In this document: positions 4,677-37,204 of the stretch, piece by piece
Layout of the letters: the number at the start of each line of letters is the position of its first letter
How positions within the stretch are numbered: the first letter of the stretch is position 1
Assembly (NCBI RefSeq): GCF_037042905.1
Contig: NC_087250.1
Location: 10,170,001-10,234,000, forward strand
DNA: 64,000 bases
Origin: Lytechinus pictus
Taxonomy: Eukaryota
Direction: 5' to 3'
Translations under genes and position numbers: made by a program
The notes under the pieces: generated by a model
The model's database searches: none
Told to the model about the DNA's origin: nothing
The model's input: only the letters and a program-made list of their open reading frames with translations

Positions 4677-4708
4677 GTGTGGTAGTCCCGTTAATGTAGC
4701 TAACTTAC

Positions 4709-6651: not shown

Positions 6652-6748
6652 CTTCAAGCTGGAGTCTGCTCATATCGGGTGGTGGTGGAATAGCTGGCTC
6701 CTGGTTGACTGTAAGCGCCTTGCGTACATCTCCTACATCTGATTGCAC
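6652..6748 (-). CDS. VCL: Vinculin exon 15 (end of D4 and start of Pro-rich linker), VQSDVGDVRKALTVNQEPAIPPPPDMSRLQLE, phase 0-1
   Basis: cag/gtttgt boundaries, 97 nt; corresponds to human [31 protein letters not shown]. Confidence 0.9.
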
Positions 6749-10200: not shown

Positions 10201-10560
10201 ACAGGCACCTGGACCATGTTGCACAAAATATATTCACTGATGGTAACATTGTTATCAATGACATCTTATAAGAAACCTTGTTTTTGACTGGTCTTTATAA
10301 AAAAAATTGTGACTAGTATTGAACTTGACATTGTTGTCATCCTTACATTTACTGTATGTTACATTTCATGCAAGAAGAAGGGGGAAGTGTAAAATGAATA
10401 AGATGAATATTCAAAACACCATGAATATTCATAACATGAAATGAGAATAGGTACAGACATGTAAACAGTGGCACGATGCAAATGCAGTAAATGAATATTC
10501 TAATTGTGGACAGCACTCATGAATAATTCAACAGGACACAGGATGCAGTGATTGTTCGAC

Positions 10561-10692
10561 CTGTCTTGGCTTGGGATGCGTGGTGGGCGGAGCCGATCTC
10601 ACAGGGGGCGGGGCATAAGTAGGAGTCTCTACCGATGGCGTGCTAGGGTAATTTGGGAACGTTTTCAGCACGGCGTCCAAGTCGTCTTGTAT
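10561..10692 (-). CDS. VCL: Putative alternative hinge exon H7, IQDDLDAVLKTFPNYPSTPSVETPTYAPPPVRSAPPTTHPKPRQ, phase 0-0
   Basis: ctgctcccatatag acceptor, CAG|gtcgaa donor (or read-through to VEQSLHPVSC*); 132 nt CpG-rich island. Confidence 0.68.
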
Positions 10693-13600
10693 CTATATGG
10701 GAGCAGTGTGTGCAAGCAAACGTGATTGGCGGGTTAAACGTGATGTCATCAGCTTATTAATCAATCTGATATTGAGACAATCAGCCATCTACTTTCCATG
10801 GCTGATGGCTACTGTTATAATATGTAAAAATAAATCAAACCTAAATTTAGCGCAGTGAGCATACATATATTCAATCTCTTTATGGTTTTTACATGTCTAT
10901 ACATACACTTCTATTACAATGTTTACAACTAAAACTACATTTTTTCTTAAATACAACAATAAATGTGGCATGGTGAAGCATGTCTATGATGCATTCCAAG
11001 TGTCATTTTGCTCAAGATCTTGCATGGTATTCCAGAAAAATCTTCAGAATTTATTTTAAGAAATGGATTGTCTGATTCTGTTGAAAAAAAAAATATTTTC
11101 AAATGCCTTGGCTTTCTACAAATTCTTTCACCAATTTGAAATACCATCGTGTTAACATACCTACATGTGATATACATGAAGACATACAATATATAACCAT
11201 ATATATCAGACAAATAATCAGTAATAGTATACACAATCCCCTTTGGGAGTACGATAATGGGGGCGGGGATTCTTGATAAGCTAAAAAGAAGCCATGCAAT
11301 TTGCGGATGCCTTGATATGAATACAAATCACAATAAAGAAACATTTAAAAAATATGATTTTCAAAAGATCAACCATGAAGAATGTTAACCCTTAATCAGA
11401 GGTAGTAATATATTCAGACCAAGATTTTTGCAGACATCACTGCCAAGGATTATATTTTTTCCCCTTTTTTGCACATACCATACCTTAGGGAAACCTCAGA
11501 CTTCGATCCGTTATTTGAGGCTCTCATTGAATGGCTTCTACATTCAATCATTGTGTGGATTATTGTTGATCAATACTGAAAAATCATACACATACATGTA
11601 CATCATTTGAAAGCTTAAGATGGGCTATTTCAAGCTCAATATAAATCTCAAAATTCATTTTGGCAGACTTAAGTTGGTTTTGGGGTGGTGGGTCACAATT
11701 GTGGTCAACACTAAACCTAATTAAATATATCCTACAAATTTGGCACAATTAAACTTTTTTTGTGATGTTGAAAACACATTCAACTGGTTGATTTGTTGAA
11801 AGTTTGAGACTATGTAAAATTCCATTTAACGTTTTATACAGAACCGTAGCTACATACATGTACACATTAACAATTGAGTTCCAAATTCATGCCTGTTTGT
11901 CCTGGCAATTTTTCCTCAATGTTTACCAAAGTCTACAAATGGCAAAACTAAACCCATTAAAGACCGAGCATCTGGGACCCATCATACAAAGATTTACGAT
12001 TGATCTGATCAACCTCAATTGTATGGAAATCCATCAATGTCATAATTTTTTTTACAGGATATTTGCAGGATGTCCTTTTGTTAACGAAGAGAAGCACACT
12101 GAATTTTCAATAAAAAAATGAATGTGTGAATAAACAGCATATCTAGAAAATATTTTGAACAAACATGCATTTTAGATGTTGACGTTGACATTGCTGGCTT
12201 TCCATAGTTGTGATTGATCAGATCAATCTCAACTCTTTGTAAGACGGGACCCTGCTTTCTGCTAGGGTTGTAGCATACCCAGCCAGTCTCAGAATGGTAT
12301 TCTTTCTCCATCCATAGAACAATGGAGCAAAGTGGTTGCTCTTGTTCAATCGTGAATACAACAAGAATCAATGCACAAATAGTTGAGTAAACTGACTGAT
12401 AACAAAAGTATTTCAAGAATTAGATTAAAATAAAATGGAATTCATGGATATGACTCTCACAGTACTAACAGATTTTGATTGCTCCAATCGAAATCATTTA
12501 TAGATAGTGCATTAACAAAATATTGCATGAAGCATTGGCTGGTACTGACAGGACAAGCAGGGCTATAATCTATACCATCACACTACTATTCATTTGCATT
12601 GCAACAGTTAATCATTCATATCATATATTACATTCCTGCACTTGTTCACCAACTATGTACAGATAACTACACATTTACATGTACATGCAAGCTATTAAAC
12701 ATCTAAACACACACTGCCTTTCGCCTGATTGTCAGCAAAACTGTTCAACTTTTCATGGCCTTGAAGGACAATATCTCTGGCATATTCAATGAGGTGCTTT
12801 TCATGTTCTAGCTCTGGAAAGACAGTTTTTCAGCAAGAACAGGCTCCAGGGTGGCCTTTCATAAAGCTGTTCATGAGTTAAGAGCAACTTTATGCACAAC
12901 TTTGTTCATAACTTTATTCACAACTGATGACATATCATGTGCTAAATAAGCTAGCCTAATTTTTGTAAAATTGGGAGTGAATTTCCTATATCAAATTTGG
13001 ACAAATCATTCATTTTGCATGTGGACATTTGTTAATGCAAGAATTCTATTTCATAAAGATCTAATTTGAACTTAAGCTGATTGGAATTAAAAAAAATGAT
13101 AGGCATGCAAGAATAAGTAATCAGTTGTAGGTAAAGTCCTACTTATGAACAGCTTATGAAACGGCTAGCAGGATACATATAATTACCAACTTCATTTCTA
13201 CAATATCAAACATACTACAGATTCAATGGCCTACAAGCCTATCACACCGGTGTTATATTGATATACCTATAGCTACAAAGGTAATGTGGTGCATTGTTAT
13301 ACCATATATAATATGGTTTTCCTATATCATATGTGATTATTGAGCATGTATACTGTACTCACTCTAACAGGACATAGGTAGTTTGAAGAGTGAAGTCTTA
13401 AAACTTTGCCAATGAAGTCTATGGGCATGCAAAAGGTTGGGTGTCTTTATAGGGCTAAAATAGTGTGTGATACTAAAATGTATATGTACATTGGTGTGTT
13501 CAAGCCACATATGGTTTAATAGGTATAAGGGATTTAGAACTGTGGGTTGTTTCTAACACATATCTAAATAGTAAGTCAAACAGTAAATTAGCTTTATATA

Positions 13601-14509
13601 TAAGGAATTGAAAATCAAGTGGTGACTGTGTGCGGTCAATAAAGCAAATACATGTACTACATAATGGGTGCATTACACAGTATAAGGTTAAGGTGGCAAT
13701 GGTTTTAAACTAATGCATAATCTGAGGCATAAGAATTTTAAATCTAAAGCTATTATGCTATGTAGTGTGTAATGTGGGGAGAGGTGGAAAAGGGACTTAA
13801 CATGTCCTATGCACCCAATGTGATATACTTTCATTCATTATCTTTACTCATTCTCCACTGTGATTTCAAAAAGAATAAAAAAAATAATAAGACAAATTTA
13901 AAAGTGTACGTATATTTAAAAAAATTATCAAAGGAAAATAACCTGTAAAATAGGACAAAAGTAATATAGTGTAGTCACGTGGGGTTTTCACAGTTTGGCA
14001 TCTGTGTGTTTGATATCATAATTTGCACTACAAACATACACACACATATTCATACACGACTATGTACAAAACAAACAACACAATCCACCATACACAACAG
14101 ACATTTCTGACCACTCACAAATCCCGATACAAGTATGTTACAACAGAATCAGCCAATCACAAATGGGCTTGCATTCACGTATCATTCTCTTTTTAATTGG
14201 TAGAGTGCAATGACTTTTCAACACAGACGCTTGTTCTGATCGCGAGTAGCCAATCAGCTGCCTGCTTTCATTGTTAATTACACTCAACATGGGTGCTTAT
14301 GTATGGAGCTCTGCCATTGGTGCACATCTGCTCATCTGCAAATCATAGTATTTTGTTAGTGTGCAATAAAGGGGGTAAAATAAAAAATTTACAAAATCAT
14401 AAATCAAATATAAAAAAAAAACATTTAAGTGCAACATGAATATACAAAGGAGGAAAAATTAATGGAATATTTTTAGATTATGATGAAGAGAAGAAAACAA
14501 TATGAAAAC

Positions 14510-14626
14510 CTCTTGTGGAATAGTGAATGAAGGAGCCTTATGTTGACTTGCTGGATCGTGAGCAGAGGGAGCCCTCTTTGGTGAAGAACCGTGGCCGTGA
14601 GGAAAATTGCGAGATATCCCTAAGGG
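14510..14626 (-). CDS. VCL: Putative alternative hinge exon H6, PLGISRNFPHGHGSSPKRAPSAHDPASQHKAPSFTIPQE, phase 0-0
   Basis: ttctttcctaacag acceptor, GAG|gttttc donor, 117 nt GC-rich island. Confidence 0.6.
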
Positions 14627-15778
14627 CTGTTAGGAAAGAATTTGTGAGTAAATGAAGAAAGGTGTTAATAGTCAAAGTCTTCACTCCTGTGTCGTCAGCA
14701 TGCTTGTGAATCAAATAAATCAAAATCAATGCAAATCATTTATCTTTCAAGCAAATTTAAAAAATGCAGAGTTCCATTCCTTACATACTCAAAATGTGTC
14801 CTGAAATCTTGACTCATCTCTCAATCTCTCCCCCTCCCTCCCTTCCCCCTCCCCTCCCTCCCTCCCCCCTCCCCTCCCTCCCTCCCCAAATCTCTCTCTC
14901 TCCTCTCTTATATTAACTGTGAACTCGTAATTTATCAAACAACCTGCTGCATCATTTCTATATTTTGATGTTTATCTCACACAGAGTTTTACTTATTTGC
15001 TGTGAATCCTTCATTTATCTTAAATCCTGATATTACAACATCACTGACAGATAAAACTCAAACCCATCTAAAAAAAATTAAACATCAATGTCAATTATCA
15101 TAAATATAGACAAACACATCCACACCCGAGTACAATCACATAGGCCCTCACATATTAACCCACACTCATATAGGATAAAAACGTTATGATACATGTAGCC
15201 ATGAGAACATAATAGGAATTTAAACAAAATATTGAGCTTTCTTCATATCTGTACACATTAAAAACTGTCCCATTAATAAATTTTAACAAAAAAAATTGGG
15301 AGAATATGAAAAAGATCTAATCTAAAAGAATTCTGTTTGAAACTGTAATTACTTCCCATGAAGCAAACCGAAAACCGCTCGATAACTTTTCATATTACCA
15401 TCAAACCCATATTCAACTCTTCTACCTTATTTCATGTATATGAATTAAACAAAAACCAAAGTCCAAAAAATTACATTTCAAGTAAATAAAAAAAATGGAA
15501 TGTTGTTTATGTACGTCCAATGAGTTTCTCATACCTTTTGGGCCCTTTTGGATAAAATTCCAGGATATAAATTCACACATGAAGGGCTCATATAAGCAAC
15601 AATATCCCATGTTTCACTCATTCTGACCAAGAGATGGATTGGGATCGTTCTTAAATTCATATACTTGAATATACTTGTATGGTCATATCGTGGGATTCAT
15701 GTCATAATTTCAAGTCACACTTCATCTCAGAATCAAAACCAATCAGTTAAAGCATTCAAAGAGTTAATCGACAGAGAC

Positions 15779-15853
15779 CTGGTAGTCTGCAGGTTCCGAG
15801 GTGGCCTTTGGGGGTGGGGGCGGGGGAGGGGGCGGCACGGACTGCTCACCATT
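15779..15853 (-). CDS. VCL: Putative alternative hinge exon H5, NGEQSVPPPPPPPPPKATSEPADYQ, phase 0-0
   Basis: gatttcttaacag acceptor, CAG|gtctct donor, 75 nt. The poly-Pro run uses mixed codons (CCG/CCC/CCT/CCA), so it is not a microsatellite. Confidence 0.66.
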
Positions 15854-16184
15854 CTGTTAAGAAATCAAGACAATCGTTATCAGCACTTCAATCTCAGATT
15901 ATCAGTAAGGGCACGTGACAAAAAAGGTGGCTGGTAGTCACACAGCAAAAACCTGTGGTGTTTACCGGCGTACAAAGAGGACCGCACCAGTTAATTTACA
16001 CTGGGTGTTAAATTGACAGTGTTAGTTTTACACCTATAGGTGTTATTATAAAAGCTTCGGTTGTTACATTTACACCTGTTGGTGTTCTGTTCAATCCCTA
16101 GGGTGTAATTTGAACACCTCAGGGTGTGGTCCTCTATTAACACCAACTGGTGTCAGTTTTAACACCACGGTTTTTACAGTGCAC

Positions 16185-16965
16185 TAACCCGTTGGAGACT
16201 ATATTTTGCTTTTACAAATGTTTACCATAGACTCCAGGCCGCATATATCGTCAGTGATTTAATGATCTGGATCAAACCTCGGCTGGTCTCCAAAACCTGA
16301 TTTCAAGATATTCGCATTCAAAGTTTGAATGTTTTTCAGACCATGATAATTTGTGCTTTGAAAGAACTGTATCAATTAATTATAGCAATTTAAGGCATAC
16401 AGTACATTCTACTCTTTTATAATATGCAAAATTTTGTCTGCAATTCACATTTATTCTCTATTTGAAATGAAGCGCATGTATACATTTCAAAAGCTGCTAA
16501 ATTTTACTCAAAACAGGGGGTTCGAGTCACTTCGTAAAATCCCGCATACCATGCGCACTATTTTTTAGCGGCACAAACCAGATCGTGAAATCATTCATTC
16601 CGTGTGCATGATTTTTTAGAGGCACAAACCCTGCGGAAACCACATACATGTACGTGCCGCATACACGCAGCATCTCGGTCGGGTCTTTGACCTTTGCGCG
16701 TCATTCCAGAGACTTTATATTACACAAAGTACATGTATGGTTTGAGCCATTTCGTAAAATCAAAGGAGGGGGTTGAGCCGTTTCGTAAGAAATTTCAATA
16801 TGCTCTTATTCTTCAAATAATACGAATTTTAATCTGAAATTTGGCAACTCAATAGGGTGAATCACAGGCTTTTAGAATATGCAAAAAAAATAATTTCGAA
16901 AATTACGTTTGAGCCAGTTCGCAAAATCACTGACAATATTCAGGCCTAGTCCTCAACAGGTTAAG
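16185..16965. mobile_element. Nested TIR elements (outer piggyBac-like; inner TCAGTGATTT TIR element ~16247-16940), adjacent to a CACAG/CACTG MITE at 15940-16182
   Basis: Pairs of inverted termini visible by eye. Confidence 0.55.
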
Positions 16966-17154
16966 CCCCTAGAAATTTTCAAACTGGTCCCAGGTGATGC
17001 CTATTAATATTGTTAAAAACAAATTAAATTAGGAAAGAAACAAGGAGAAAAATTTCTTCCTGTAGAAAAATTATGGTCTTTTTCCTCAATGAATGTTAAC
17101 GTGTGGGGGCCGGAATAACACTTGCCCACAAGATAATCCTAAACTAAAACTACC

Positions 17155-17564
17155 ATTTGTTAAACAAATTTTCAGCATTACTCCTATTTGCTTAAGATCG
17201 GTATGCTCGATCTGTAATGAAAATCATAAGTCAGAAAAAATTGGAACCAGTTGGATTCGAACCTGCCATCTACTGCTTTCCGGGCTCCGGCTTAACCACC
17301 AGGCTATTCTGGTTCACGGCTAAACCATGATGAACTGGAATTCAAATACCCTCGATCCTCTTCTTTCTGACTCATTAATATGCCGTGGACAATAGATAGT
17401 AAATAAAGAAGCTTAAGTTTAAGGTTAAGTCGCTGCCCGGAAAGCAATAGATGGCAGGTTCAAATCCCACTGGTTCCAATTTTTTCTGACTTATGATTTT
17501 CATTACAGATCGAGCATACCGATCTTAAACAAATAGGAGTAATGCCGAAAATTTGTTAACAAAT
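17155..17564. mobile_element. Foldback element with ~140-bp inverted arms, each containing a tRNA-like Pol III module
   Basis: Arms 17155-17295 and ~17425-17564 are near-perfect reverse complements; B boxes GGTTCGAATCC / GGTTCAAATCC followed by T6. Confidence 0.75.
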
Positions 17565-17946
17565 TATAATTTCCTCCTATGAAAGCCTCTTTATTTACTA
17601 ACACTATCATCGTAGAATCATCATTTGGCTGTAACAGAAATATTAACCTAATACTAAATGAAAACCTCATGCCACGAACAATTTGGGCAATGCCTCAACA
17701 AAGTTCCCAGACAAAATAAAGCACTTAAAATTTCCTTAAATTTCAAATTTTCAGGCTCTTTAATTGTAGCTGGGAATATATTGTTTCATCTAAACTTAAG
17801 ACAAATTATATGATTTGATTCTCATGTCTGTTTTGTCCTCTTTTCTTTTTATAAAGTCCCTTGGGTATTTTAGTTAAAATGTAATTGGCAACTCATCAAT
17901 CAGATGAATTATGATTATCACTTTGATGTCATTGCAATATACTGAC

Positions 17947-18210
17947 CTCCAGGTCAACAGGGGTCATGCTGAGGTCATAGAGGGGTGAAGAGGTCACGGC
18001 AGGGTCGTGCAGAGGCTGAGGGTTCAAGCTTATTGAGGAGCTCGAGACAAAGTTTGGTTGGTTAGAGGAAGGACCACTTGTGTTAGGGTCGGAAGTTAGT
18101 GTTGGGTCATAAGGAGAGGTCATATGAAGAGGATGACCTTGGGGTCGAAGGTCAGAGGTCACAGGGTTCAAAGGATGATAGGATTGATGAGAAGCATTTG
18201 GTAGAGAATC
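17947..18210 (-). CDS. VCL: Putative alternative hinge exon H4, DSLPNASHQSYHPLNPVTSDLRPQGHP...PLYDLSMTPVDLE, phase 0-0
   Basis: ttattgacag acceptor, GAG|gtcagt donor; 264 nt open frame rich in Pro/Ser/Thr. Confidence 0.7.
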
Positions 18211-18944
18211 CTGTCAATAAGAATGGATACAGATAAGAGTAGAGAAATGACAGAACTGCACTACACTGTACAAACCATTGGGTATTTCCATTTAATGTGT
18301 ATACATGTATGTCCCTTCCCCCTACTTGTGAAACCGTCCAGAAACTATCTCTCTCCCTCTGTTCAATTTCATAATATGTAAGGTGTATTCTATTTAATTT
18401 ATTTACTCATTTATTCATTCAAATATATTTTTATATTGAATAAAAGCAATCAGCACAGAGGCTGTTTTACATTGCAGACTTTAGTACTTTGAAGTGAAAC
18501 AAGAATCTTGATAACTTCATGGAATCGCACGCTATATGCATAGTAAGCAGAACAAAATGAAAGCATGAAAGGAAACTAATTCAAATAAAATTGAGGTCTT
18601 AGAATTAATTTTTTCTGTGAAATCTATCCACTAACAAATAATATTAAATAGAAGGGGTGTCATTTTGCATCAAAAATACAATGAAGATTTTTAAATGGCT
18701 TGAAACTTATAATCATTTTTTTTTTAGGGGGGGGTTGGGGATGATACAGAAATGATATTATTAATAACGAAAATAACAGAATTACAGGTGAAGTAGTATA
18801 CAGACAAACGACCCCTCCCCCCACACAATTTTTTTATGATTGAAAAGGTGGATTTGCCAGGGGGAAAAAGACAGAAAACAGCATTTTGCAAAGGACTGTG
18901 CAGCTAAATATCAAATAAATTGGTATAATTTGAACGAGGGTAAC

Positions 18945-19070
18945 CTCATTGTAAAAGGAAGTTGAAGGATGGGAGGAAGGCTGAGGATGATCAGTTAAAG
19001 GGTTGTCATGGTGATAGGGATGGCCATTCATGGATGACATGTAAGGTTGGTTGGAGTCAGCATATGAAGG
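18945..19070 (-). CDS. VCL: Putative alternative hinge exon H3, PSYADSNQPYMSSMNGHPYHHDNPLTDHPQPSSHPSTSFYNE, phase 0-0
   Basis: cctgtccccttacag acceptor, GAG|gttacc donor, 126 nt. Confidence 0.65.
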
Positions 19071-19753
19071 CTGTAAGGGGACAGGATCGAAATAAACCAG
19101 GTAAAAAACCAACTACTGTTAACACTGTCAAATGCATTATTATTTTTCGTTGGGTCATGAATTAGGAAGGAATGAAAATATAAAAAGCACTTTCAAATGC
19201 TTTTTTTCTCCTTTATTTGTATTATGAATTAAAAAGGATTGTACAAATTCTATAACGATGCAAACTCCATGCATTTATTTATCATTATATCCCCCCGCAA
19301 CTTTTTTTTTAAAGAAAGGGTATAAAAAAAATCAATGGTTAAATAGTTAGCCCACCAATATCATCTTGTATCTAAGATTTTTAAAGTCATATATCAGCTT
19401 GTACATCTGTCAATGTCCAATAACATTTTTTTTTTTTAATAGAATGTAAATTTCATACTTGCAAACAGTGTAGTTTACAGAATAGGGAAAAAGTGAAGAA
19501 AAAATGAAACATGCCTTTATAGATAAGACAAACTATAATTTTTTAACAAATTCTTGATCATTATTGGTGAAACAGGTTTTTTCCCAAATAAGATGTTGAC
19601 TCTTTCTATTCATTACAGACACTTACATGTAGCAGATAAAAATATATGACATTGTTTAGGCCTAACCACATGTGTACCTTGTGACATGAATGGAATTATG
19701 TTACAACATGAATATTCAATATATTAATGAATATTCAATAGATAATAATGAAC

Positions 19754-19873
19754 CTGGTAAGAGGGTGTGGCTTGGTTGGCGTAGGCGGAGCTTGGAGGTG
19801 GAGGGGGCACGGCTGGTGCACTCTCTGTTGCGTAGCCGGACGATGCTTGGATTGGATCAAAGGACGGCCCTCT
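19754..19873 (-). CDS. VCL: Putative alternative hinge exon H2, RGPSFDPIQASSGYATESAPAVPPPPPSSAYANQATPSYQ, phase 0-0
   Basis: GC-rich island; tttctatccatag acceptor, CAG|gttcat donor, 120 nt. Confidence 0.68.
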
Positions 19874-21784
19874 CTATGGATAGAAACCGCCCAATCAATA
19901 GATCATGAATATGCATGCCTAAAACTAAAACTTAAAATTTGTATTTCTACAAAATACACATTTACACATCAGCATAGGGAGTCCCTTTATTGTGTCTATA
20001 GGTTCAAAGTACATTTACCAATGTTCATTAGGTTCAATTACTTGAAAATTCTAATTTAATTTTGAACTTTGGGTTCTAAGGAATGGATTCGATTTAGATA
20101 TAATTTCAGGAATAGATTGAAATACAATTCTTCTAGTTTTACAAATTAAATGGATAAAAATGATGCTGCCTAGAAATAATAAATTACTACCAATAGTATT
20201 CATTTGTAAATTGTCTTTTATAAAGTGCAATAAATGAATTGAAATGCGTTGAATTGAATTATTCTGATGATTAATAAAATTCTTTATCCATCTTTAAAAA
20301 TAAATACATAAAGACTTTTTGATTATGAAATTACATTATCACTATTCCACATCCATTTGAGGTTTGTACTTAGGAAAAGAATAAAAAATGTCTGAATAGG
20401 TACAGATATGAAATTTAAATCCTACTTTTTTACTATAGAATATTAATTTATCAAATTAAATAAAAGATATATGCCTAACACAAGAAGATAAATTCTTCAG
20501 TAAAAATGACATGTACTTCCATGCAGACAGGTGCAAAACATGTACAATGCAATTACAGATTACACATGGTCTTATGGACATCATAATAGTGTGCTGTATA
20601 CACAGTGCATCTGTTTGAATTATTACCTGGAGGGAGACTTTTGTGTACTCTATACCATGTAGTACTACTTATATTTCAAAAGTTTGAAAATGATGAGTAA
20701 TAATTTGCAATCATTTTATGCTGTAATAATTTGTGGAACAGTACTTTCATAACCCGGGTTATCATTTTTACACTAAAACAATTTGGTAATTTCAGCATAA
20801 CTTCATGCAATATACAAGTGTGTTTCTTTTTGTTTTTCTTGTTTCAAATAAAAACTTGTTGGGCAGAAGATAATGATTATTCCCTATCAAGATAAAAGAA
20901 AACCAAGTTTTTCATGCAAAAATCATTGATTTTATTTATATCTTGCTAGCAATAGGCATTGGTATTTATCCACTTAAAATACAAATCATGTAACTCTACA
21001 AGGCACACCTCCTTATAATAATTTAAAAAAAATTATCCTCTTATATTCTTGCAGTTTCATATAAACTAGGATTACTTTAGAGGGAGAATACATGTACATC
21101 CATGGTATGTAATTAGCCCCAAAATTTAAAGAACTGCCTAATTTTCATGCAATCTTGATTGATTTCATTTCAATCTTGTCAGCAATTGGCATTGGAACTG
21201 ATCCAAATAAAACAAACAATTATTTACAATAGATTCCTCAGAGAAAACAACACACAAACATTCTCATTTCTTACATGTACTTAGTATGCACAGTTTACAC
21301 ACACAATCAAAATACACAAATGTAATCAATAAGACACAGTCTTCATAAAAAGATACACACAATAGTCGTACATATATACATTCTCACTTAGTATACACAC
21401 ACACACATACACACAACATAGAGCAAGCTTGAACATGTATCAGCCACTAACCATTTCACACACTTACGATAATCACTTTTCAATCCCAGGTCAAACATCA
21501 CATGCCTAACCCTTCATTCCATTCTATTATCATTTTACATCAGGAATTTTATTAAGATTTTAGGTTGCATATTACAGTATGATTGTCGGTATTTAAGGAT
21601 GCATATCCCACGGTCAAAATTTCATGCAATGATATTGAAGGCCATTGCCTTGGATGCCTTATTCATTAGCCTCAAAGTCCCTTTCATGGGCCTACAGAAA
21701 TGTTGTGTGCCTTTTGTTTTCCTCAATTGTACTGTAATATGGGGAAAATCCAGTGGCCTTCCCAAAAAGATGTAATGATCTTGT

Positions 21785-22105
21785 AATTTATAATGCGCTT
21801 AAGACATGCACTGTAAGTATTGAAGCACTGAGAATTTATTGTTACCCCAGTCGTCGGACTCATTCAGACATGATTGCACACAATGTATGCACATCCTCCC
21901 CTCCCTGGGGAGGATTCCAGCCAGTCGCCATTGAGGCGCACAGAGTATGCAACAATGACTTTCACATCCTACCGGGTTCCCATTTAGCACCTGGGTGGAG
22001 AGTGGCAAAGGGTGGATTAACGCCTTGCCAAAGGATGCTAGGCCATGGTGGGATTCGAGCACACGACCCTCTGATTACAAGGCGAGATTCGGAACCACTA
22101 CATGA
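21785..22105 (-). mobile_element. tRNA-derived SINE with conserved-domain-like centre and L2-like tail
   Basis: Degenerate head (GTAGTGG...GCTCGAATCCC), central CCTTTGGCAAG...CCACCCAGGTGCTAAATGGG, tail TTAAGCGCATTATAAAT similar to the LINE 3' end at 5010-5070. Confidence 0.7.
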
Positions 22106-23592
22106 AGACTCTTCAATGTAAGACCCATTACTATGGCAAACAAAGGCAATCCCCCTCACATTCATGTACACACATTTGAAAGCTGAGCATTCACTTTACA
22201 ATTCCCCTTTTTAAAATTTCTCTCAACAGAAGGTCTTCACTGTTTATCTTCTTTAATCACAAATATCTCTTATCATTCCCAACCCCCCCCCCCCTCCTTA
22301 AAAAAAATAATTTGCTATTGGGTGCAATCAGGATATGAGTGTTTCACAAAGCAACTTGCTCATGATTTTCACTGGCAATTCACTCTCAGCCAATCATATT
22401 CAAGCATTTGTGTAGCTTGAAACAGCTGTCAGTGAAAATCACAGGGAAAGAGCTTTGTGATATGGGCCCCTGATGTGGAGGTATATTATATGCAATCTAA
22501 TTGAATATCATGAAACTGTCAGGGGGTGGGGTTCTACATACTCATTTACATGCTGTTAGCTGATTGGTTGCTCCACTCCACTGTGCTTATGAATATTCAT
22601 CAGGTCATCAACCATGCTGTGGGCAAGAGATATATACATGGATCTAAAATGTTAGATAAACACAGCTGCCAACCATTAGAAGTGTACTGTTAACAAATGC
22701 CTAATGCCAGATTGAAAAACACAATCATAACATTTAAAGCATCATGGTCCGTTTTCTGAACTCGGGTTTTATGCAAACTCTGGTCTTCATGAAGTTGCGG
22801 TCTATCTATTGATAGCCAATTGTCACAAAGATATTGAATAGTACATGCTTGACTTAACGGCTTATTTTTCACTCAGATCATTAATACACATAACTCTCTG
22901 GGAATTCTGGGAATTTTAACAGTTTTCTTTTTGCGATCATATCAAGAGCACAGAAAACAAAAGAAACATACAATGTGAACAAAATTTGAGCATTTTTTAC
23001 TGCCTACAATTTTAGTGCAGAGTTTAATAGACAAGATTCTAAGCAGACTTCAGAATACAGGCCAAAATGTGTATATTCCGTGCATACAAATTCTGCATTC
23101 TTGAAGCTGATTACTTTCAATGCACTCTCAATTATTCGAAGCTGTGAGGAATACGTCATGAACAGCTTTCAAATGAATATTAAAAAACATGTGAAATTTT
23201 CTGCAATGGTTGGCAACTTTTGAGGAAGGAAAAGTACAGTGACCTGCAAATTAGTACGCTATATGCATGGCAGGAGAAAAGATTAGATTGATAAATGTAC
23301 ATAAATTGGCATATGATTAATAAATTCTTTACATAAATCATGTGTTTTTACTCACATTAAGAGCATTCTACATGTACATGTATATGAATCACACAAAACA
23401 AGTACATACATGTACACAAAACTGGACAAAAATCGGTCTTCACACATTTACTCATGCTACAAAAAATAAGCTTGTTTTGATTCTTTGGTTAGCTTGCTAC
23501 ACTTTTCGTGAATGATTAATGAGGGAGGAAGTTAAATGGGGACTCATTTGCATATCGCTTTGCATATGATCTGCGTGAATTAGGTCAACAAC

Positions 23593-23715
23593 CTGTGGCA
23601 CTGCAGAATGTTCCATCGCTCCCATGGGGGGAAGAGGAGGTGGTGGTGGGAGGGACTGCTCCAGAGGAATTTCGACCGTGAGAGGGATTCGCACAGCTGC
23701 TATTGACTTCCTCAA
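23593..23715 (-). CDS. VCL: Putative alternative hinge exon H1, LRKSIAAVRIPLTVEIPLEQSLPPPPPLPPMGAMEHSAVPQ, phase 0-0 (paralog-like to exon 15)
   Basis: Strong acceptor ttctttttcccttag; 123 nt if the donor is CAG|gttgtt. The 3' end is uncertain because the frame stays open to a stop at 23497. Confidence 0.72.
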
Positions 23716-24452
23716 CTAAGGGAAAAAGAAACTCATACATATTCATTGCGAACAAAAGAAAATCAATATTCATTCATGTATGAAAAAATAAAACCAAATT
23801 CACGTAAAATAAATTCAAATATATAGATCAATCTGATACATAAATATTAATGAAAATAAATAATGAATATGAATTTAAATACATCATAACTACATGTATA
23901 ACTGAAAATACATCCTACAAAATTAATATATGACAAATAAAGTAACATCCTTATTTAGGAAATGCCAAAGATGTATTAATCAAAGTATTTAAGTAGCATC
24001 CACAACAAATCCTGTTTTTATTAACAAAAAGTAAGCATTATCAATCAGGAAACACTAAAAAAACATAAAATATTCTCTCAATAAAAAACAATCATAATAA
24101 AAAAAATAATACAAGATTGATAATAATGAAATGCAATTCATATATTTTGCAGGAATGAAAAGTTGATTCCAGAAATATGTGAATAGCAAGAAATAAATAC
24201 ATTATACAACCAACATATCTGAAGTTCAAAATCATCTTTGACTCATATTAAAGAAAAATATTAAGAACAAAATCATATGAAAGACAGATTCACATACTCT
24301 GCAAATTGCTCCCATATTAAGGAATGAATTCACTTTTAATTTCCAATGATAATGATTAATTTTAGAACAAGAAATTTTCTTTCAAAAAACATACAGGTGT
24401 CGGAAGAAAAAAATTGAGTAGAATAAATGAATAACCGGGTATTACAGCTTAA

Positions 24453-25787
24453 AGGAGAATGAAACCCAAAATGTAATACCACATAATATCATTGATAAGT
24501 AAATGATAATCAAAATGAATCCACTTATACCCAAATCCGATTTCCCAGAGTGGAGTACCACCTCTTCAAAGTTGGGCTTCTTCACGTTCAAAGTCTCTAA
24601 ATGGAGATCGCCATTGTTGCGAGGTTCATTCAAAATCGTGACGTCAGCGACGTACAACTGCTCTCGGTACTAACTTCCATGTGCAGCTAGTCACAGGCTG
24701 AAACCAACCCCGAGTTTGCATAATATAGATAATTTTTTACAAGATATGAATATAATATACACATAAAACACTTTAAATAATTATCAAAAAGCTATTCAAA
24801 TTATTTTATGGTTTAAAACACAAATTGATGAGTTTTGATGAAAATGTTTACACATTTATTTACGATATCCAAATTGGCAAATTTGACAAAGCTAAATTTG
24901 TTCGTAGACAGTATACAGCCACCCACTCATCACACGTATTGCGAGGTTAGTATATAGCTAGCACCGTGAACCGCGTTTTTCAGTGGATTTCTATCTAGTG
25001 GGTCGCGCGTGCTGGGATCTTCCTTCTGGTGTCCACAACACACGACTTCCATGGCTTGATTTTTCTGTGCGCGGCAGCATGTAATGAACTCTTGAGTGCC
25101 GACCGCCGGCCCCTGAACCGAGTGATCGTGTTGACTTTTATGTTGGAAGTTTGGTTGTTTATCCCGTTTGAATATCGTTAAATTGTTAATTGTGCTATAT
25201 TTCAATATATCTAACGTTGTTTATTATTTGTTACCGTCGATTTAAGTATTATCGGACGTTTGTATTGAAATAGAACTTAGTTAGAAGGCCTGAGAGCCTA
25301 CGACTTCAAGCCCCAATACTCGGCCGAAGAAATCGGTAAAATGCTCGCTACCAACAACATCATTCCTCTTGAATTTGGAAGAAATGTAGTTTTTTTCCAC
25401 CTTTAGTGCAGCCAATCATTTTTAAAGAGATTTCTGGCCTCTTCTGCGGATCAGGAATTTGGCAAAAGCTGCATTTTGTGCCCCTTACTGACCTATTTTC
25501 GGCAGCCAGATCCACTCTGGCCCATGTATTTTATGCTAGCAATCAAAGGCGAGTGCCGAGGTCGGACATCGAGTTGTACGTCGCTGACGTCACAACCCCC
25601 CACAGAGATATAGGGAGGATGAGCAAAATGGCGATCTCCACGGGTCTTTCAAAATCAAAATATTGATAACTTTGACTTGGCATATCATGGGAAATAGGAA
25701 ACCGTTCTGCCTCATTTTACTTTTATTTTAATCAGTGAAATGTAATCAGTTAATGACCAGATAATAAATCTATCCTTTCATTTTCCT
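24453..25787. mobile_element. Non-autonomous TTAA-target DNA transposon (Kolobok-like), 1.3 kb
   Basis: ttaa|AGGAGAATGA ... TCATTTTCCT|ttaa termini; internal inverted GTGACGTCAGCGACGTACAACT (~24638 and ~25571). Confidence 0.7.
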
Positions 25788-26810
25788 TTAACATCTGCAT
25801 ACAAAATCATAGATATTTATCTACAATATGATTTCTGCAATAAACAAAATATATTAAACACTTTCTTTTGCCATATTGTAAGATAAAACAAACGAGGATT
25901 ATCAAAAAGTACTCTCATAAATATTTTTACATTATGGGAGGAGTCTAAAAGGAATAGATCTGTGCCAATACTTGCCATACATATTATCCCATTTACACTA
26001 TCTATAATATGTACAAGTGAGTTTTCATTTACTTAATAGTACTTGATTTGAGAAAGTGAGCAATGTCCAATTCCAGTTTACAAAAAATTATTGCCACATT
26101 TAAATGATTCAGAACAAAATGGTTCAACAAAGTTAATTTACCCCCCAAAAAACAACTATTCCTGGGGAGCGTTTCATCAACATTTTTATCTGACAAGTTA
26201 TCAGCTCTGACAACTTTCCTTGATTATGATTGGCTGAGAGGCATCGTTACCATAGCAACTGTCGGATAAAACAGTACTTGTCGGATAAAACGTCTGACAA
26301 TTCCTTTCATGAAACTGTTTCATGAAAGCTGTTTGTAATATAAGAGTGACTAAACAAAAGACAGGTAATCTTTTCTTGTAGTATTATGTGCACTGTATTT
26401 TCATTGGTGTGGATTTAGCTCCTGAGAAAGGATCACCAGTCGTTTGTAAAGTCGCTTTTAACTTAAGAACCGCTTGATGAAACACCCACCAGGTAAATGG
26501 GACAATATAAATGACAAGAGAGGGCACCAGGGGGCAGTTTCATAAAGCTGTTCGTAATTTAAGAGCGACTTTAAGAACGACTGGTGAACCCTTCTTATGC
26601 GCTAAACCATCGCCAATACAATATACCATTTACCCAAGAAAGGATCACCAGTCGTTCTTAAAGTTGCTCTTAACTTATAAACACCTTTATGAAACCCCCA
26701 CCTGTAATAGTGGTAAATATATGCACATTGCTATATAGATATTTATATGATTTATATATTGGTTAATATAATGATTATATACTGTAATGGTTAATAAAAT
26801 GATATATCAC

Positions 26811-26902
26811 CTGTTTATTTGCTGAATACCAATGGTCTTGTCCATTCCGGTCATTGGGGTTTTGGGAAACTGTCTTAGCTGCTATCACAGAAGCTGGTAT
26901 AT
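26811..26902 (-). CDS. VCL: Vinculin exon 14, (D)IPASVIAAKTVSQNPNDRNGQDHWYSANKQ, phase 1-0
   Basis: tag/gtgata boundaries, 92 nt; corresponds to human [30 protein letters not shown] and fits both neighbouring phases. Confidence 0.88.
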
Positions 26903-27311
26903 CTAATATTGGATTAGAGCACAATCATGACGATTAATGAATAGTAAACATAATTAAAAAAAATAACAATATACAAGAGTCCCAAGCTCATATTGCTAAA
27001 CATACTGCATTCATTTGGCATCTGCCATTAATTTAGAAATTTGTTGATTAATGATCTATTAAAAAATGGCAATACAAAGGAAACTTTACAACAACAAAAA
27101 AATTCCCAAAGCCTTTCACATATTTTCAGGGGGATTCGTGCTTGAAAAATTAAGCAAAAGTGCAGCCATGAAAACAAAAAAATACTAAGGTTGCCTATCT
27201 GAAGAACAACAGCATAACAAAAAGTGTTCCCACTAAGTAATCATCCAAATGGGTTGGCAAAGGAAATTGTAATCTGCCCAACCCATTGCCCCATGACCCT
27301 TGACCTCTGAC

Positions 27312-27509
27312 CTGCTGAAAGCTGATTGGCTGCCTGGCTGACGTCATGGACGAACTTGGGGTCCTCTGAATTGGCGGCTTCTTTGGAGGCGACCACGGCA
27401 ACCCGCTGGGCACGCCTAGCGATGTTGGATGCCTTCTCCGCGATGACAGGGGCGTTGTTCTGCTTGATGGCCCTATCTACATCTTCACTCTCCGCCTTGA
27501 TCGCTTCCT
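27312..27509 (-). CDS. VCL: Vinculin exon 13 (D4), (E)EAIKAESEDVDRAIKQNNAPVIAEKASNIARRAQRVAVVASKEAANSEDPKFVHDVSQAANQLSA, phase 1-1
   Basis: cag/gtcaga boundaries, 198 nt; IARRANR...NSEDPKF motif. Confidence 0.94.
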
Positions 27510-28011
27510 CTGTGAGAGAGTGGAAAGTTGAACAGGGATGGTCATAAGGGTGACACAACATTTGCTCTCAGTAATACTTGATTACCCTGATGTCCAAGTT
27601 CCATGAACTAGCACATAGGGACGCATTTGGCAGTGATATGCACTATATAAGCATGTTGGTATTATTATTATTAGGTCCATATATTTTATTATGATGACAT
27701 TAAAAAAAATTAATCTTGGTTAAGATTTCAATGTTGACAACACCACCACCGCCGCCGCCGCCACTTCCGTCAGAAAAGCGGCGCCTACAGTCTCGGTTTG
27801 CTATGCAGGCGAGACAATAAAAAGTGCACTTGAAATCCCTCCCGAATATCAAACAATAAGATGGCGTGTAAAATAAGAGAAGAAGAAAAAGAGGAAGAAA
27901 AATGAGAAGTATAAGAAGAAGAAGATGAAGAAAAATATGAAGAAAAAATACAAGAAGAAAAAGAAGAAATTCAAGAAGAGGAGGATGGGGAGGAGAGGGG
28001 AAAAAATATTT

Positions 28012-29462: not shown

Positions 29463-29574
29463 CGGATGCTTTGACGAATTCCACAGTATCAACAGCCTGG
29501 TCTACCAAGTCGGTCAAAGCCTCGACTTTTCCCACATATTCCTTCTTCAACTCATCAAAGTGGGATACTGCAAT
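29463..29574 (-). CDS. VCL: Vinculin exon 12, IAVSHFDELKKEYVGKVEALTDLVDQAVDTVEFVKAS, phase 0-1
   Basis: tag/gtgaga boundaries, 112 nt; resembles human [30 protein letters not shown]; absent from the ORF track. Confidence 0.92.
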
Positions 29575-30332
29575 CTAGAAGTAACAAAATAAAGAATAAT
29601 ATTAGTCTGGTCTACCAAGTCGGTCAGAGCCTCGACCTTTGCCACATATTTCTTCTTCAACTCATCAAAGTGGGCGGCTGCATCAAATAACTATGACAAA
29701 GAAAAAGAAGTAGAAGAGGAAGAAGAAAGGAGGGGAAGGAGAAGAAGAGGAGGAAAGATAAGAAGAGGAAGGACGGAGAAGAAAAAGAGGAAGAAGATTA
29801 AGCAGCTTCCCATCTCCATATGCGATCAGATTATATGTACCATTTTTTTCACCGAGGTCGCAATTTAGGCCAAATAAGAGCGACATGTAAATTAAGAAAG
29901 CACAAAAGCCTAAATGTAGTAAAGACCCGCAGGTCTCCATCCATTTGAGCATAAAATAACTTTTAGTGCCAATATCCCCTCAAAGTTGAAAAAATAAATG
30001 AATCCTTCATCTGGAAATCAAGGAAATTATTGAGCTTTTCAAGGTTACCAATGAAACCATGCCTATTTAAACTCTACGGAATCCTGCTATGGTGTTTGGG
30101 GGTTTTCTTAAACAATAAACCAATTATCTGTCTATCTACAACTGTCTGGAAATAACAACTCAAATAGTTTTCATCATTAAATCATGAGGAAAGAGTACAG
30201 TAAGCATATAAAGCAAATAATGTTAATAAAAGGTTGAAATCCTTGGCTTTCTGTAATTCTAGCAGAGGATCAGACAATGGTCAGAGTTAAACTGGACAAC
30301 ATAATACAGATAAAATTGGTTAAAGTGCCTAC

Positions 30333-30550: not shown

Positions 30551-31880
30551 CTATACGTGGAGGAAAATCAGTGATCAATATTAAATCAAGATAAATACAA
30601 AGATAATATCTTGTTGAGACATTTAAATGTGGCACGGACAGTCTTGCAGGGTTCGAAGGCATTGATCAAAGTACAAAAAGGAAATCTTGTTTGCATGGTA
30701 CAAGAAGGCTGTTGCCTTTGAGGTGTAGGTCTGTTGCCTGTCGGGAACATCTATACATGGAGGAAAATCAGTGCTCCATAATAATAAAGATAAATATACA
30801 ATGTCAGTTCTCATTAAAACAATTTATATAAGATACTGACAAACTGGTTCAGAAAAATATTGATCAAAGTACAGATAAGGAAATATTGATTGCATGGTTC
30901 AAGGAGACTAGGAGGCCGTTCTCATTACGCTTTCTAAAACTAGTTTACTGGAAACCGATTCAGGAAACCAGTTTGGAAGATCGCTTTGCTAGCGTTCCCA
31001 CTTGATCACAAGAAAGTGGTTTTCTATATCATTTCACGTAAAGCGCTCTTGTTGCTATGGAAACGCTCTCAGAGGGGTGACACGTTTTGCGCAAAATTCG
31101 AAACCGCAGTATAGGCATTCTACACCTGTCGTGTGGAGTAGCGCACTCAAAATGTGGGAAGATCGCTTCCCGAAGAACGGTTGTGTCCTCACTTACGCTA
31201 AAACCAGTTTAACGAGGCAAAGCGATCTTGAAAACTACATCACAAGGTGGTTTTCCAAAATGGTTTGGAAGATCGCTTCCAAGACCGCTTAGACCGTTCT
31301 CACTCCGCGTTAAACTAGTTTCCAGTAAACTAGTTTTAGGAACATAGTGAGAAAAGCCTCTAGGACTTTCAGGTGTAAGTCTGAATGATACCTGTTGGGC
31401 ACATTCATAGGTGGTAGAAAATAAGAAGTCCATTAAGACAAGTTCTCATTAAGAAATTGACACGTGGCACGATCAGTCTTCAAGGGATCAGAAAATAATG
31501 ACCAGAGTAGAGAAAAGGAATCTTGTTGCATGGTTCAAGAAGACTGTGGCCTTTCAAGTGTAAGTATGTTGCCTGACAGGCACATCTATAAGTGGTGGAT
31601 AATCGGTGGTCCAATAAAGATAAGGACGATTTCTTATTTGAAAATTCATATGGGGCATGGACAGACAACAATAGTTCAGAAAATATTGATCAAAGTACAG
31701 AGAAGGAAATCTTGTTGGCATGGTTCAAGAAGATAGTGGCCTTTGAGGTGTAGGTCTGTTGCATGCCGGGCATATCTATCTATATGTGGTGGGAAATCAG
31801 TAGTCCATATTAAAGACAAAGTTCTATTGTTATGAAATTGGCGAGTGCCACGATCAGACTACAGGGTTCAGAAAATTTCA
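30485..31880 (-). repeat. ~190-200-bp tandem array containing the acceptor and first ~65 nt of exon 11
   Basis: Four extra copies of CTTTGAGGTGTAGGTCTGTTGCCTG..GGCACATCTATA; one is split by a MITE. Confidence 0.85.
30912..31360. mobile_element. PIF/Harbinger-like MITE with 3-bp TSD (TAG), inserted in a duplicated exon-11 fragment
   Basis: tag|GAGGCCGTTCTCATTACGCTTTCTAAAACTAGTTTACTGGAAAC ... GTTTCCAGTAAACTAGTTTTAGGAACATAGTGAGAAAAGCCTC|tag. Confidence 0.8.
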
Positions 31881-33373: not shown

Positions 33374-34126
33374 TACAAAATATCAGGCGACATTAAATTG
33401 GGTAGGGGGTGGCTATTTAGATATGTATATTCATCATTAATCTACCACAGTTTTCTTTAGGAAATTACATGAACAAAATGTTGCCATATTGATGATTGAG
33501 ATTGATGAAAAGTGGTTAAAGGGGTACTCAGGAATGAAAATATTATCATTTGAACAGATAAAGAAAAATTAAACAAACAAAATGCTGAATATTTTACCAA
33601 AAATCAGACAAGGAATAACAAAGTTATTGCATTTTAAAGATTTGCATTATTCCAGTGAAACAGTTCTAGGCATGTCTTTATGAATATTCAATGAGCAAAC
33701 TGATGCTGTCATATCCCCTCTTGTTCTTTGTATTTCATTATATGAAATTAGGTTTATTCAATTTATTTTCTTCAGAAACCAACAACTGATTTATTTAGTA
33801 CATTAGATATTCTTTGCTGCAACTTATTTCATTACAAGATAGACATATCATTCACAAGTGTAGAAAAATGAAAAATGAAACAATTATGATTTCATGAAAT
33901 AACATAAGAAAAAGGAAAGCACCGATGTGAAATCATCAGCCCACCTAATGACTATTCATGACATCATGCATTTATTTTCACAATACATTGCTAAACTTTA
34001 AAATTCAATAACTTCACTATTTCTTATCAGATTTTGATGAACTTTTCAGCATTTTGCTCTTTAAATTTTTCTCTTTTTATTTAGATATAAATATTTCCAG
34101 GTCGGAGTACCCCTATAGTAACTCAC

Positions 34127-34272
34127 TTGTCCCCTGTTCACAAGATCCGTTATTTGTTGAGAGAGGCCTTCGACTTCATCACAGAGCCTCAGGAGTTCTG
34201 ATCGTTCCGGGCCTGTCAGGTTCTGGGCCACCTTCCTTCCCTGGGCAACGATACCAGCAATGGCTTTGCGTC
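34127..34272 (-). CDS. VCL: Vinculin exon 9, (G)RKAIAGIVAQGRKVAQNLTGPERSELLRLCDEVEGLSQQITDLVNRGQ, phase 1-0
   Basis: tag/gtgagt boundaries, 146 nt; same length and phase as exon 7 (internal repeat). Confidence 0.94.
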
Positions 34273-34656
34273 CTAAATAAAAAGGGCAAATAGTAGAATA
34301 ATACATGCGACTCTGCCGAACAGTTAATAAGAGATGAAAGTGACTAATCCACTAATTTGACGCGTAAATCTGCCATAGATCTTTCATACACTTATCTGCA
34401 TATCCCACTTTACATGATACTTTATTTTGTTCATTATATACAAAGCTTTATAAACTCAAGGCCTGTTGCATAAAACTGTTTACATGAGAAAACTCTGGTA
34501 AAAACTGAAAACTAAGGTTAATCTGATTTCTGCCATTGACTTTAACACAGGGCAAAAACTCCTGTAAAAACAGCCTGAGTTTTCTCAGGTAAAAAGTTTT
34601 ATGCAACGGGCCCAAGGTGAATCTCCCCTCCTAGAAAGTGGATCGGTCCAACTCAC

Positions 34657-34849
34657 CCAGTCCTTTGTCATCTTGGGCAGGGTTCCTAAGCCACTTCTGG
34701 GCCTGCTCCACTTTACCCGCAAGGGTGTAAGCAGTCCTTGTCACCCCACTCCTAACGGCTTCCTTGACAGAACCATCCACCATCCGATGAAGGTGGTCTA
34801 GTTTCTCCGCGATCTGCCTCGAAAGTTGCAGAGCACGAGGGGAATTACC
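34657..34849 (-). CDS. VCL: Vinculin exon 8, GNSPRALQLSRQIAEKLDHL...LAGKVEQAQKWLRNPAQDDKGL(G), phase 0-1
   Basis: cag/gtgagt boundaries, 193 nt; resembles human [23 protein letters not shown]. Confidence 0.94.
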
Positions 34850-35079
34850 CTGCAAAAGAAATCATGATAAACAATCCCTTAGTTTAGAGCACTACTTTGC
34901 ATGAATTAAAGTATCCATTTCTCTCTACATGACCTGCATCACATTTGTATTTTGCCACAAAAATGTTCTCAGTGACGAGAAAATCTTTCAGAAACAATGC
35001 AAACCACATAAAATGACAAAAGTAGTATTGAACATGTGCTCGACATAAAAGAAATCTCCAGTGTAAAGGGAAACGGTAG

Positions 35080-36838: not shown

Positions 36839-37204
36839 AATTCTAAGAGGCTGTATGGTTCATTTTTCTGAAATAAGATTTTTTCATGAATTAATTAGGC
36901 TAATTCATGCATAAAACAATGAATTTGTCTACTTAACTAAACGAGGTGTTTTAATATTCATTCATCCCTTCTCTCAGTAAAAACAGTATGTTACAAAATG
37001 AGCCAGCAATTTTATGCCTTCCTTTTAAGGAGATTAGCCAATTGACAACACTTCAATAAGACCTCAGGGGACAGTTTAAAAAAATTGTAATACAGTTAAA
37101 AGCTACTGAAATGCTTCAATCTTACTGGCTGATGGTAAATTTGTTACAGAAATTGTGCATTTGTTACTATAACAAGTCTTGATAAAACGGGACCCTGAAC
37201 TTAC

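Follow-up and report, generated by a model that had tools for sequence, protein, structure and literature searches.

The closest described precedent for an optional exon that re-makes part of a vinculin fold is metavinculin. As described by Rangarajan et al. 2010 (PMC2873289), the 68-residue insert of vertebrate VCL brings a helix, H1', that replaces helix H1 of the tail. The duplication is visible in an HMMER comparison, in which one query stretch matches both human 828-917 and human 941-1007. A further point of reference is provided by tandem-duplicated mutually exclusive exons (reviewed in PMC9013439). The vinculin isoform X7 of Tachypleus (P0019), finally, has a hinge between head and tail that is lengthened by optional, frame-preserving exons rich in proline and serine.

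Here we describe a cassette exon, H1, in the vinculin gene of the sea urchin Lytechinus pictus. Like metavinculin, it is an optional exon, with a probable copy of a neighbouring helix end, of which the copy nearest the bundle would take the site and the original would be displaced. The metavinculin insert, however, lies on the tail side of the hinge, is vertebrate-specific and is known from crystallography, whereas H1 lies on the head side, where it would replace the end of the last helix of domain D4, and its packing is predicted. Unlike the vertebrate insert, H1 was recovered from echinoids, holothurians and a single asteroid only, and it heads a series of further cassettes. H1 and the constant exon 15 recall tandem-duplicated mutually exclusive exons in their residual similarity, common entry phase and alternative use, but differ from them in that length and exit phase are not the same and both exons enter the same messenger in nearly all annotated models. 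The Tachypleus insert follows the equivalent of exon 15 (after PPPPDMQNLYITE) and so has no helix to re-make, whereas the echinoderm array sits inside the codons of the D4 helix with the probable helix-end copy coming first.

The exon itself is ordinary from the standpoint of annotation, since H1 and its junctions are already part of RefSeq models (among them L. pictus X1-X7, S. purpuratus X1-X6, A. japonicus X1-X12). These records carry H1 without reading it as an exon-15 copy or as a D4 cap. A literature search, with subscription journals outside its scope, found no paper on echinoderm vinculin isoforms.

Results

Layout of the vinculin gene

The window, that is, the whole 64-kb stretch of DNA analysed, contains the vinculin gene on the minus strand. 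When P0006 was compared with PDB sequences, it matched 1st6_A (E 0, 1050 bits) through head domains D1-D4, hinge and tail, and PF01044 is assigned to all H1-bearing models. The layout in Table 1 was obtained by tblastn of L. pictus isoforms against the window, in which most exons are 94-100% identical to the L. pictus models; borders were refined by sequence and by contig joints. Exon numbers are those of the initial annotation, made from the sequence of this DNA. Of the last D4 helix, exon 14 encodes the first half and exon 15 the canonical end; exon 15 also carries the initial proline motif and occurs in all but one of 40 echinoderm models (39 of 40).

Table 1. Exons and splice-related features of the vinculin locus discussed in the text (window coordinates).
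Feature	Position	Strand	Description and basis
Exon 13	27312-27510	-	contig pieces
Exon 14	26811..26902	-	codes (D)IPASVIAAKTVSQNPNDRNGQDHWYSANKQ; enters in phase 1, leaves in phase 0 at CAG|gtgata; tblastn to P0005, joints
H1 acceptor	23716..23735	-	strong pyrimidine tract tgagtttctttttcccttag; at joint 23715|26811 the intron is bounded by CT..AC (plus strand)
Cassette exon H1	23593..23715	-	123 nt, 41 codons, phase 0/0; translation LRKSIAAVRIPLTVEIPLEQSLPPPPPLPPMGAMEHSAVPQ; contig record X1-5 of run X1 spans exactly H1
H1 donor	23585..23592	-	CAG|gttgttga; sequence
Cassette H2	19754..19873	-	RGPSFDP..TPSYQ; phase 0/0; tblastn, joint 14626|19754 to H5
Cassette H3	17947..18210	-	DSLPNAS..PVDLE; phase 0/0; tblastn, annotated models
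Cassette H4	15779..15853	-	NGEQSVPPPPPPPPPK..ADYQ; phase 0/0; tblastn, annotated models
Cassette H5	14510..14626	-	PLGISRNF..TIPQE; phase 0/0; tblastn, contig joint
Cassette H6	10561..10692	-	132 nt; starts IQDDLDAVLKTF; phase 0/0; tblastn, annotated models
Putative read-through frame after H6 donor	10528..10560	-	VEQSLHPVSC then stop; resembles D. antillarum X3 end VDQSQHPICSLLNYS
Exon 15	6652..6748	-	97 nt, phase 0 in, 1 out; codes VQSDVGDVRKALTVNQEPAIPPPPDMSRLQLE plus one base; begins VQSDVGDVRKALTV..PPPP
Exon 16	4709-4822	-	tblastn

Other features were noted along the gene. Two alternative versions of a tail exon, GGNKKDLIDTAKEIV.. at 2339-2467 and KTSKKELIEIAKKIA.. at 603-728 (minus strand), are about 53% identical to each other; these form the true mutually exclusive pair of the vinculin gene, annotated isoforms using one or the other. 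Partial extra copies of constant exons lie in adjoining introns, all on the minus strand (29583-29681; 30680-30754, 31521-31589 and 31705-31779; 38099-38182 and 38273-38383; 44596-44658). They match residues 549-581, 474-498, 233-269 and 1-21 of P0005 with 65-100% amino-acid identity and could represent pseudo-exons or alternatives missing from the annotation; one of them, at 29547-29690, has the sequence AAAHFDELKKKYVAKVEALTDLVDQ. Five intron stretches (11528-12861, 15530-16196, 16864-17530, 21533-22199 and 26202-26868) showed a summed contig depth of 505-11,613 over the three sequencing runs described below, with many joints among one another, and are probably dispersed repeats or transposons, present in all three runs. 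Base composition is skewed at 34001-38000 (G over C, +0.40/+0.42, with GC raised to 0.44-0.47) and, in the reverse direction, at 60001-62000 (-0.43). Weak Pro-rich tblastn matches at 35074-36497 and 60439-60764 fall in these low-complexity, skewed tracts.

H1 is included or skipped

H1 is bordered by ag|..|gt, its length is divisible by three, and junctions for both its inclusion and its skipping were found, as befits a cassette (skipped) exon. It is preceded by a pyrimidine-rich acceptor sequence, tttctttttcccttag. The donor does not follow the GTRAGT consensus, which is common among optional exons. The junctions come from contigs of three sequencing runs of one study (X1, X2 and X3), presumed to be RNA; the contigs do not display whole transcripts. 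The joint between exon 14 and H1 (23715|26811; CT..AC on the plus strand, GT..AG on the minus) is present in contigs of runs X1 and X3, and a contig of run X1 spans precisely the 123 bases of H1, with extra letters at both sides. Skipping is represented in run X3 by a contig that leaves exon 14 into 23 letters identical to the reverse complement of bases 4-26 of exon 15. Contigs were placed on 7526-27525 and the distance from exon 14 to exon 15 is 20,058 bases, so that joints into exon 15 are visible as loose ends only. Annotated echinoderm models likewise include vinculins with and without H1. Exon 14 is thus spliced either to H1 or straight to exon 15, as the initial annotation had proposed; the exon 14-H1 junction, on which that proposal hinged, was recovered in two runs.

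Elsewhere in the gene, the joint between exons 13 and 14 (26902|27312) was found in all three runs and that between H2 and H5 (14626|19754) in runs X1 and X3. In run X2 hardly any of the H1 words occurred, and neither a contig nor a joint of H1 was among those listed for it, which is not evidence of absence. Contig depth was 21.7 and 30.2 over H1 and 85.7 and 133.1 over exons 13-14, depths being no measure of inclusion. Allelic differences were seen at two positions in H1 (23632 and 23677) and one in exon 14, all three synonymous.

H1 and exon 15 occur together in annotated models

Forty echinoderm vinculin models, from seven species plus one further record, were tabulated; the models are computational and share evidence, so the counts are not independent. 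The exon directly following exon 14 is H1 in 35 models, H6 in three and exon 15 in two, and in none of the 40 is it one of H2-H5. Exon 15 is also present in 34 of the 35 models that bear H1. A full tail is found in 33 of these 35, and one L. variegatus model ends inside the tail. H1 is joined straight to exon 15 in S. purpuratus X5, L. variegatus P0186 (992 aa), A. japonicus X12 and P. miniata X4. H2 follows H1 in six of the seven L. pictus models tabulated, and the join after H1 in P0183 is also to H2. The sole H1-bearing model that lacks exon 15 is D. antillarum X3 (898 aa), which runs through H1, H2, H5 and H6 to a stop and has no tail; its C-terminus, VDQSQHPICSLLNYS, arises by read-through past the H6 donor.

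Reading frame accounts for the constancy of exon 15. Because H1 leaves in phase 0 and the phase-1 end required by exon 16 comes from exon 15 alone, an in-frame messenger must keep exon 15. Having different lengths and exit phases (123 nt, 0/0, against 97 nt, 0/1), the two exons are not interchangeable. Nor does the rule of "one and only one" apply, since both are carried by the same messenger in 34 of the 35 H1-bearing models. With neither defining feature of mutually exclusive exons found on testing, H1 and exon 15 do not constitute such a pair. The suggestion that H1 is the entry to an alternative, mutually exclusive-like route is therefore not supported: co-occurrence in the models, the direct H1-exon 15 joins and the differing phases all speak against it. 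The choice at the exon 14 donor is a three-way one between H1, H6 and exon 15, and the paths rejoin at exon 15; it is a matter of inclusion and skipping, not of exclusion.

The start of H1 resembles the start of exon 15

Over their first 14 residues, H1 and exon 15 have five identities in register (V8, R9, L12, T13 and V14), for an ungapped BLOSUM62 score of 21. The confirmed coordinates and peptide thus bear out the earlier remark that VR and LTV fall in the same register from the acceptor, with a proline run after each. Scored in the same manner against the start of exon 15, H6 reaches 15, and H2-H5 range from -10 to -23. By shuffling, a score of 21 has a p of 1.5e-5 when all of H1 is used and of 1.8e-4 when only its first 14 residues are. 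Among the 3,154 distinct 14-mers of three echinoid vinculins, seven attain it: three exon-15 orthologues, two H1 orthologues and two unrelated segments.

Both exon starts map to the end of the last D4 helix, again in line with what had been proposed. When the S. purpuratus X5 fragment, in which H1 lies directly before exon 15, was submitted to HMMER, two matches to human (meta)vinculin were obtained. In one, H1 residues 1-10 (LMKSVAAVRI) align with human 824-833 (ILGAVAKVRE) in continuation of exon 14; in the other, exon 15 aligns from its fifth residue with human 828 onward. Each exon start thereby corresponds to human 824, and chicken vinculin agrees. A 14-column profile of the D4 helix end, built from 20 non-echinoderm vinculins, was then used for a six-frame scan of the window, comprising 57,402 stop-free 14-mers. 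Exon 15 scored 10.0 and ranked 6th overall and first among the 3,265 14-mers that follow an AG; H1 scored 6.9, ranking 39th overall and third after AG. True members of the profile scored 4.0-19.5 in leave-one-out runs. Outside the echinoids, the H1 sequences of the sea cucumber A. japonicus (1.9) and the sea star P. miniata (-0.3) fell below that range. In an hhalign comparison of seven H1 rows with a 17-row alignment of full-length canonical vinculins, H1 residue 1 was set on residue 717 of P0010, which is residue 1 of exon 15: the exact register among 951 template positions (P 0.0031, at a probability of 10%). H1 also shares seven of 14 residues with the canonical segment of amphioxus.

Other searches speak against the resemblance. 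No cross match between H1 and exon 15 appeared at E<=0.1, poly-Pro aside, in tblastn of the isoforms against the window, and neither exon alone found a vinculin among PDB sequences at E<=10, both being too short. Exon 15 alone did match ATG3 among the PDB sequences, by chance, through the similar pattern V.K..TV...P..PPPP. Similarity between the two exons is upheld by the profile methods, but at a low hhalign probability and with no match at the level of BLAST. Tested as a tandem duplication, the pair gives a short similarity with the shuffle and hhalign values quoted above. Taken together, the comparisons indicate a real, in-register resemblance that exceeds chance by a moderate margin only, and they make shared ancestry of the two exon starts likely. 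Given the low scores of the sea-cucumber and sea-star sequences, the main grounds for ancestry are the echinoid copies and the place of H1 in the gene.

Conservation and spread of H1

A word-indexed search with the H1 peptide returned eight proteins at E<=0.01 among 104 candidates, all annotated as vinculin isoforms. These eight belong to L. variegatus and L. pictus (both 100% identical) and to Strongylocentrotus purpuratus (95%). Additional searches recovered H1 from Diadema setosum, D. antillarum, Apostichopus japonicus, Holothuria leucospilota and Patiria miniata, so that the exon is annotated in three classes, Echinoidea, Holothuroidea and Asteroidea. When a profile of five H1 sequences was run against 6,567 candidates, 21 proteins came up at E<=10, and all were echinoderm vinculins except for one protein that matches the Holothuria sequence over the stretches compared. 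At this threshold none lay outside echinoids, holothurians and one asteroid, which is weak evidence of absence; crinoid, ophiuroid and hemichordate models are not among the matches listed. From its occurrence in the three classes it follows that H1 is at least as old as their common ancestor, which lived several hundred million years ago.

H1 is better conserved than the constant exons 13 and 14 and about level with exon 15. Between L. pictus and S. purpuratus or Diadema, identity amounts to 95% and 80% for H1, 68% and 35% for exon 14, 79% and 68% for exon 13, and 91% and 78% for exon 15. The exon is laid out as a probable helix-end copy (residues 1-13) followed, at residues 23-30, by PPPPPLPP. 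Hydrophobic residues at positions 1, 5, 8 and 12, spaced as on one face of a helix, are present in all six H1 orthologue sequences, as are the invariant Pro11, Ile16 and Pro17.

The best-conserved part of H1 is the P-x4-I-P stretch formed by residues 11-17 (23665-23685, minus strand), which is without a counterpart in exon 15. It reads PLTVEIP in L. pictus, PLIVIIP in the sea cucumber and PFIYVIP in the sea star.

Ligands of the Ena/VASP EVH1 domain have a core of the [FL]PPPP type with flanking acidic residues. Candidate EVH1-like motifs can be recognized in H1 (SLPPPPPLPP) and in exon 15 (IPPPPDMSRLQL), the latter like human FPPPPPDLEQL.

Predicted packing of H1 in D4

In the AF2 model of the canonical S. 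purpuratus isoform X6, the last D4 helix extends over 704-729, includes residues 1-13 of exon 15 (pLDDT blocks 95/87) and is followed by a low-confidence hinge. In the model of isoform X5, where H1 precedes exon 15, the helix extends over 704-728 and includes residues 1-12 of H1 (pLDDT blocks 95/86); the exon-15 copy (758-789) is non-helical and lies inside a stretch of pLDDT<50 (731-814). This result is not independent, since in the MAFFT alignment the H1 columns already contained the canonical helix ends of the non-echinoderm rows.

In view of this bias, an alignment-free docking was run with ESMFold2, using no alignments. One chain was D4 truncated where exon 14 ends (residues 610-716), and the 41 residues of H1 were supplied as another. 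The docking score was 0.86, against 0.00 for the best of three controls. In the calibration, which does not extend to peptides, 51 of 78 solved complexes attained that mark, as did two of 108 mismatched pairs. The runs agreed on at least 91% of contacts, with a partner pLDDT of at least 58. In the predicted interface, H1 residues 1-13 face residues 612-627, 649-663, 672-690 and 713-716, and the tightest pairs involve H1 residues 4, 5 and 8. Since vinculin D4 is a solved structure, the pass may reflect a memory of the canonical helix; the docking thus shows that H1 resembles the D4 helix end in the eyes of the model, not that it binds.

These two models bear on the further proposal of the initial annotation, that H1 completes the head fold. 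That part stands to the extent that AF2 and ESMFold2 both put the first 12 or 13 residues of H1 in the D4 bundle; they are predictions, possibly biased toward known vinculin. A replacement of the metavinculin type is likewise at the stage of prediction: the alignment-biased AF2 model gives a helix at 704-728 with the exon-15 copy unstructured, and the docking gives a placement that the controls do not.

H6 as a second candidate cap

H6 is the only cassette besides H1 that is annotated straight after exon 14. Its start is identical to that of exon 15 at Q2, D4, V8 and K10 and has hydrophobic residues at 1, 5, 8 and 12. Compared over 12 residues, the two score 19 (shuffle p 4e-5), a value reached by four unrelated 12-mers of 3,073. 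In hhalign, the Pro-rich part of the hinge was all that the H6 family aligned with (P 0.008), which leaves the register-fixed score as the basis for considering H6 a third cap. H6 may thus be a second, younger copy of the helix end.

The read-through frame that follows the H6 donor in the window (Table 1) may correspond to a conserved, tail-less vinculin consisting of head and hinge. Alternatively, the conservation may be that of an intronic splicing element.

Discussion

The results describe a genuine cassette exon that is probably an old partial copy of exon 15 and that probably replaces the end of the D4 helix, pushing exon 15 into a longer hinge. Other readings of the same data differ in how much of this they retain. 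The initial interpretation, in which H1 and exon 15 are mutually exclusive-like and the H1 route bypasses exon 15, is largely refuted and scarcely tenable. D. antillarum X3, with H1, H2, H5 and H6 but neither exon 15 nor tail, is the one model of this kind, and the frame VEQSLHPVSC that runs to a stop after H6 in the window resembles its end; but this tail-less route depends on H6, not on H1. Against it stand the presence of exon 15 in all other H1 models, the direct H1-exon 15 join in four species, and a length and exit phase that bar substitution in frame. H1 could instead be a plain linker insert, with D4 ending (or fraying) at exon 14, H1 disordered throughout and the likeness to exon 15 due to chance. 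The invariant proline at position 11, which would shorten a helix, the weak pairwise signal (in tblastn and against PDB sequences) and the openness of both structure predictions to bias toward known vinculin would all fit such an insert. We nonetheless consider it quite improbable: H1 is more conserved than the folded exons adjoining it, the 1-5-8-12 hydrophobic pattern is kept by all six orthologue sequences, the non-helix-like cassettes H2-H5 never come directly after exon 14 in the 40 models, and the alignment-free docking sets residues 1-13 in the groove where controls score zero.

The alternative that retains most of our reading is convergence. H1 would then be a real D4-capping cassette whose likeness to exon 15 arose without common ancestry, any exon placed after exon 14 having to bring the same amphipathic turns and a proline linker. 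We regard this as unlikely, if less so than the preceding readings. It would explain why, outside the echinoids, only the hydrophobic pattern and the proline run are shared, and why the A. japonicus and P. miniata sequences score so low on the canonical profile; H6, too, has the same pattern and little else, its best hhalign match being confined to the Pro-rich part, and the same pattern turned up by chance in ATG3. On the other hand, convergence accounts poorly for the five in-register identities of the 14 in echinoids, for the seven residues shared with amphioxus and for an hhalign match that falls on the exact register. Moreover, helix end, short spacer and PPPP follow one another in the same order in both exons, which also agree in entry phase, and tandem exon duplication is a common source of similar neighbouring exons (PMC9013439). 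Together, these points favour descent of H1 from the start of exon 15.

The arrangement that we consider the most probable is the following. H1 heads an array of frame-preserving hinge exons situated in an intron of about 20 kb that cuts the last D4 helix. Its first 12-13 codons most likely derive from an ancient duplication of the exon-15 start and have diverged since, with a proline run after them as in exon 15. Placed after exon 14, the N-terminus of H1 would form the three final turns of the D4 helix, where residues 1, 5, 8 and 12 would face the core, and the head domain would be complete despite the long disordered insert that comes next. Exon 15 is always kept downstream, since it alone restores the phase for exon 16, and its own copy of the helix end would become part of a longer, proline-rich hinge in the H1 isoforms, to which H1 would add a proline motif of its own.

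A more speculative extension, which we rate as highly improbable, may be worth stating. H1 isoforms would be single chains with two or three interchangeable D4 caps (H1, sometimes H6, always exon 15) separated by 40 to about 580 disordered hinge residues. When the protein is loaded, with its head on talin and its tail on actin, the cap in place could peel off and one further downstream could re-dock, releasing hidden hinge length stepwise as the head stays folded. The result would be a helix-exchange store of slack, built by exon duplication and set by splicing according to tissue.

How vinculin opens under force is set by the length of its hinge and by the contact between head and tail. Optional exons can extend the echinoderm hinge from about 60 residues to several hundred, and they do so from a place inside the codons of a folded helix. 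By re-making the helix end ahead of the insert, H1 appears to be the adapter that enables this growth. If this is confirmed, the vinculin family would twice have replaced a helix by means of an optional, duplicated exon, in the tail of vertebrates (metavinculin) and in the head of echinoderms, and H1 and exon 15 would be a clear example of duplicated exons included jointly, not exclusively.
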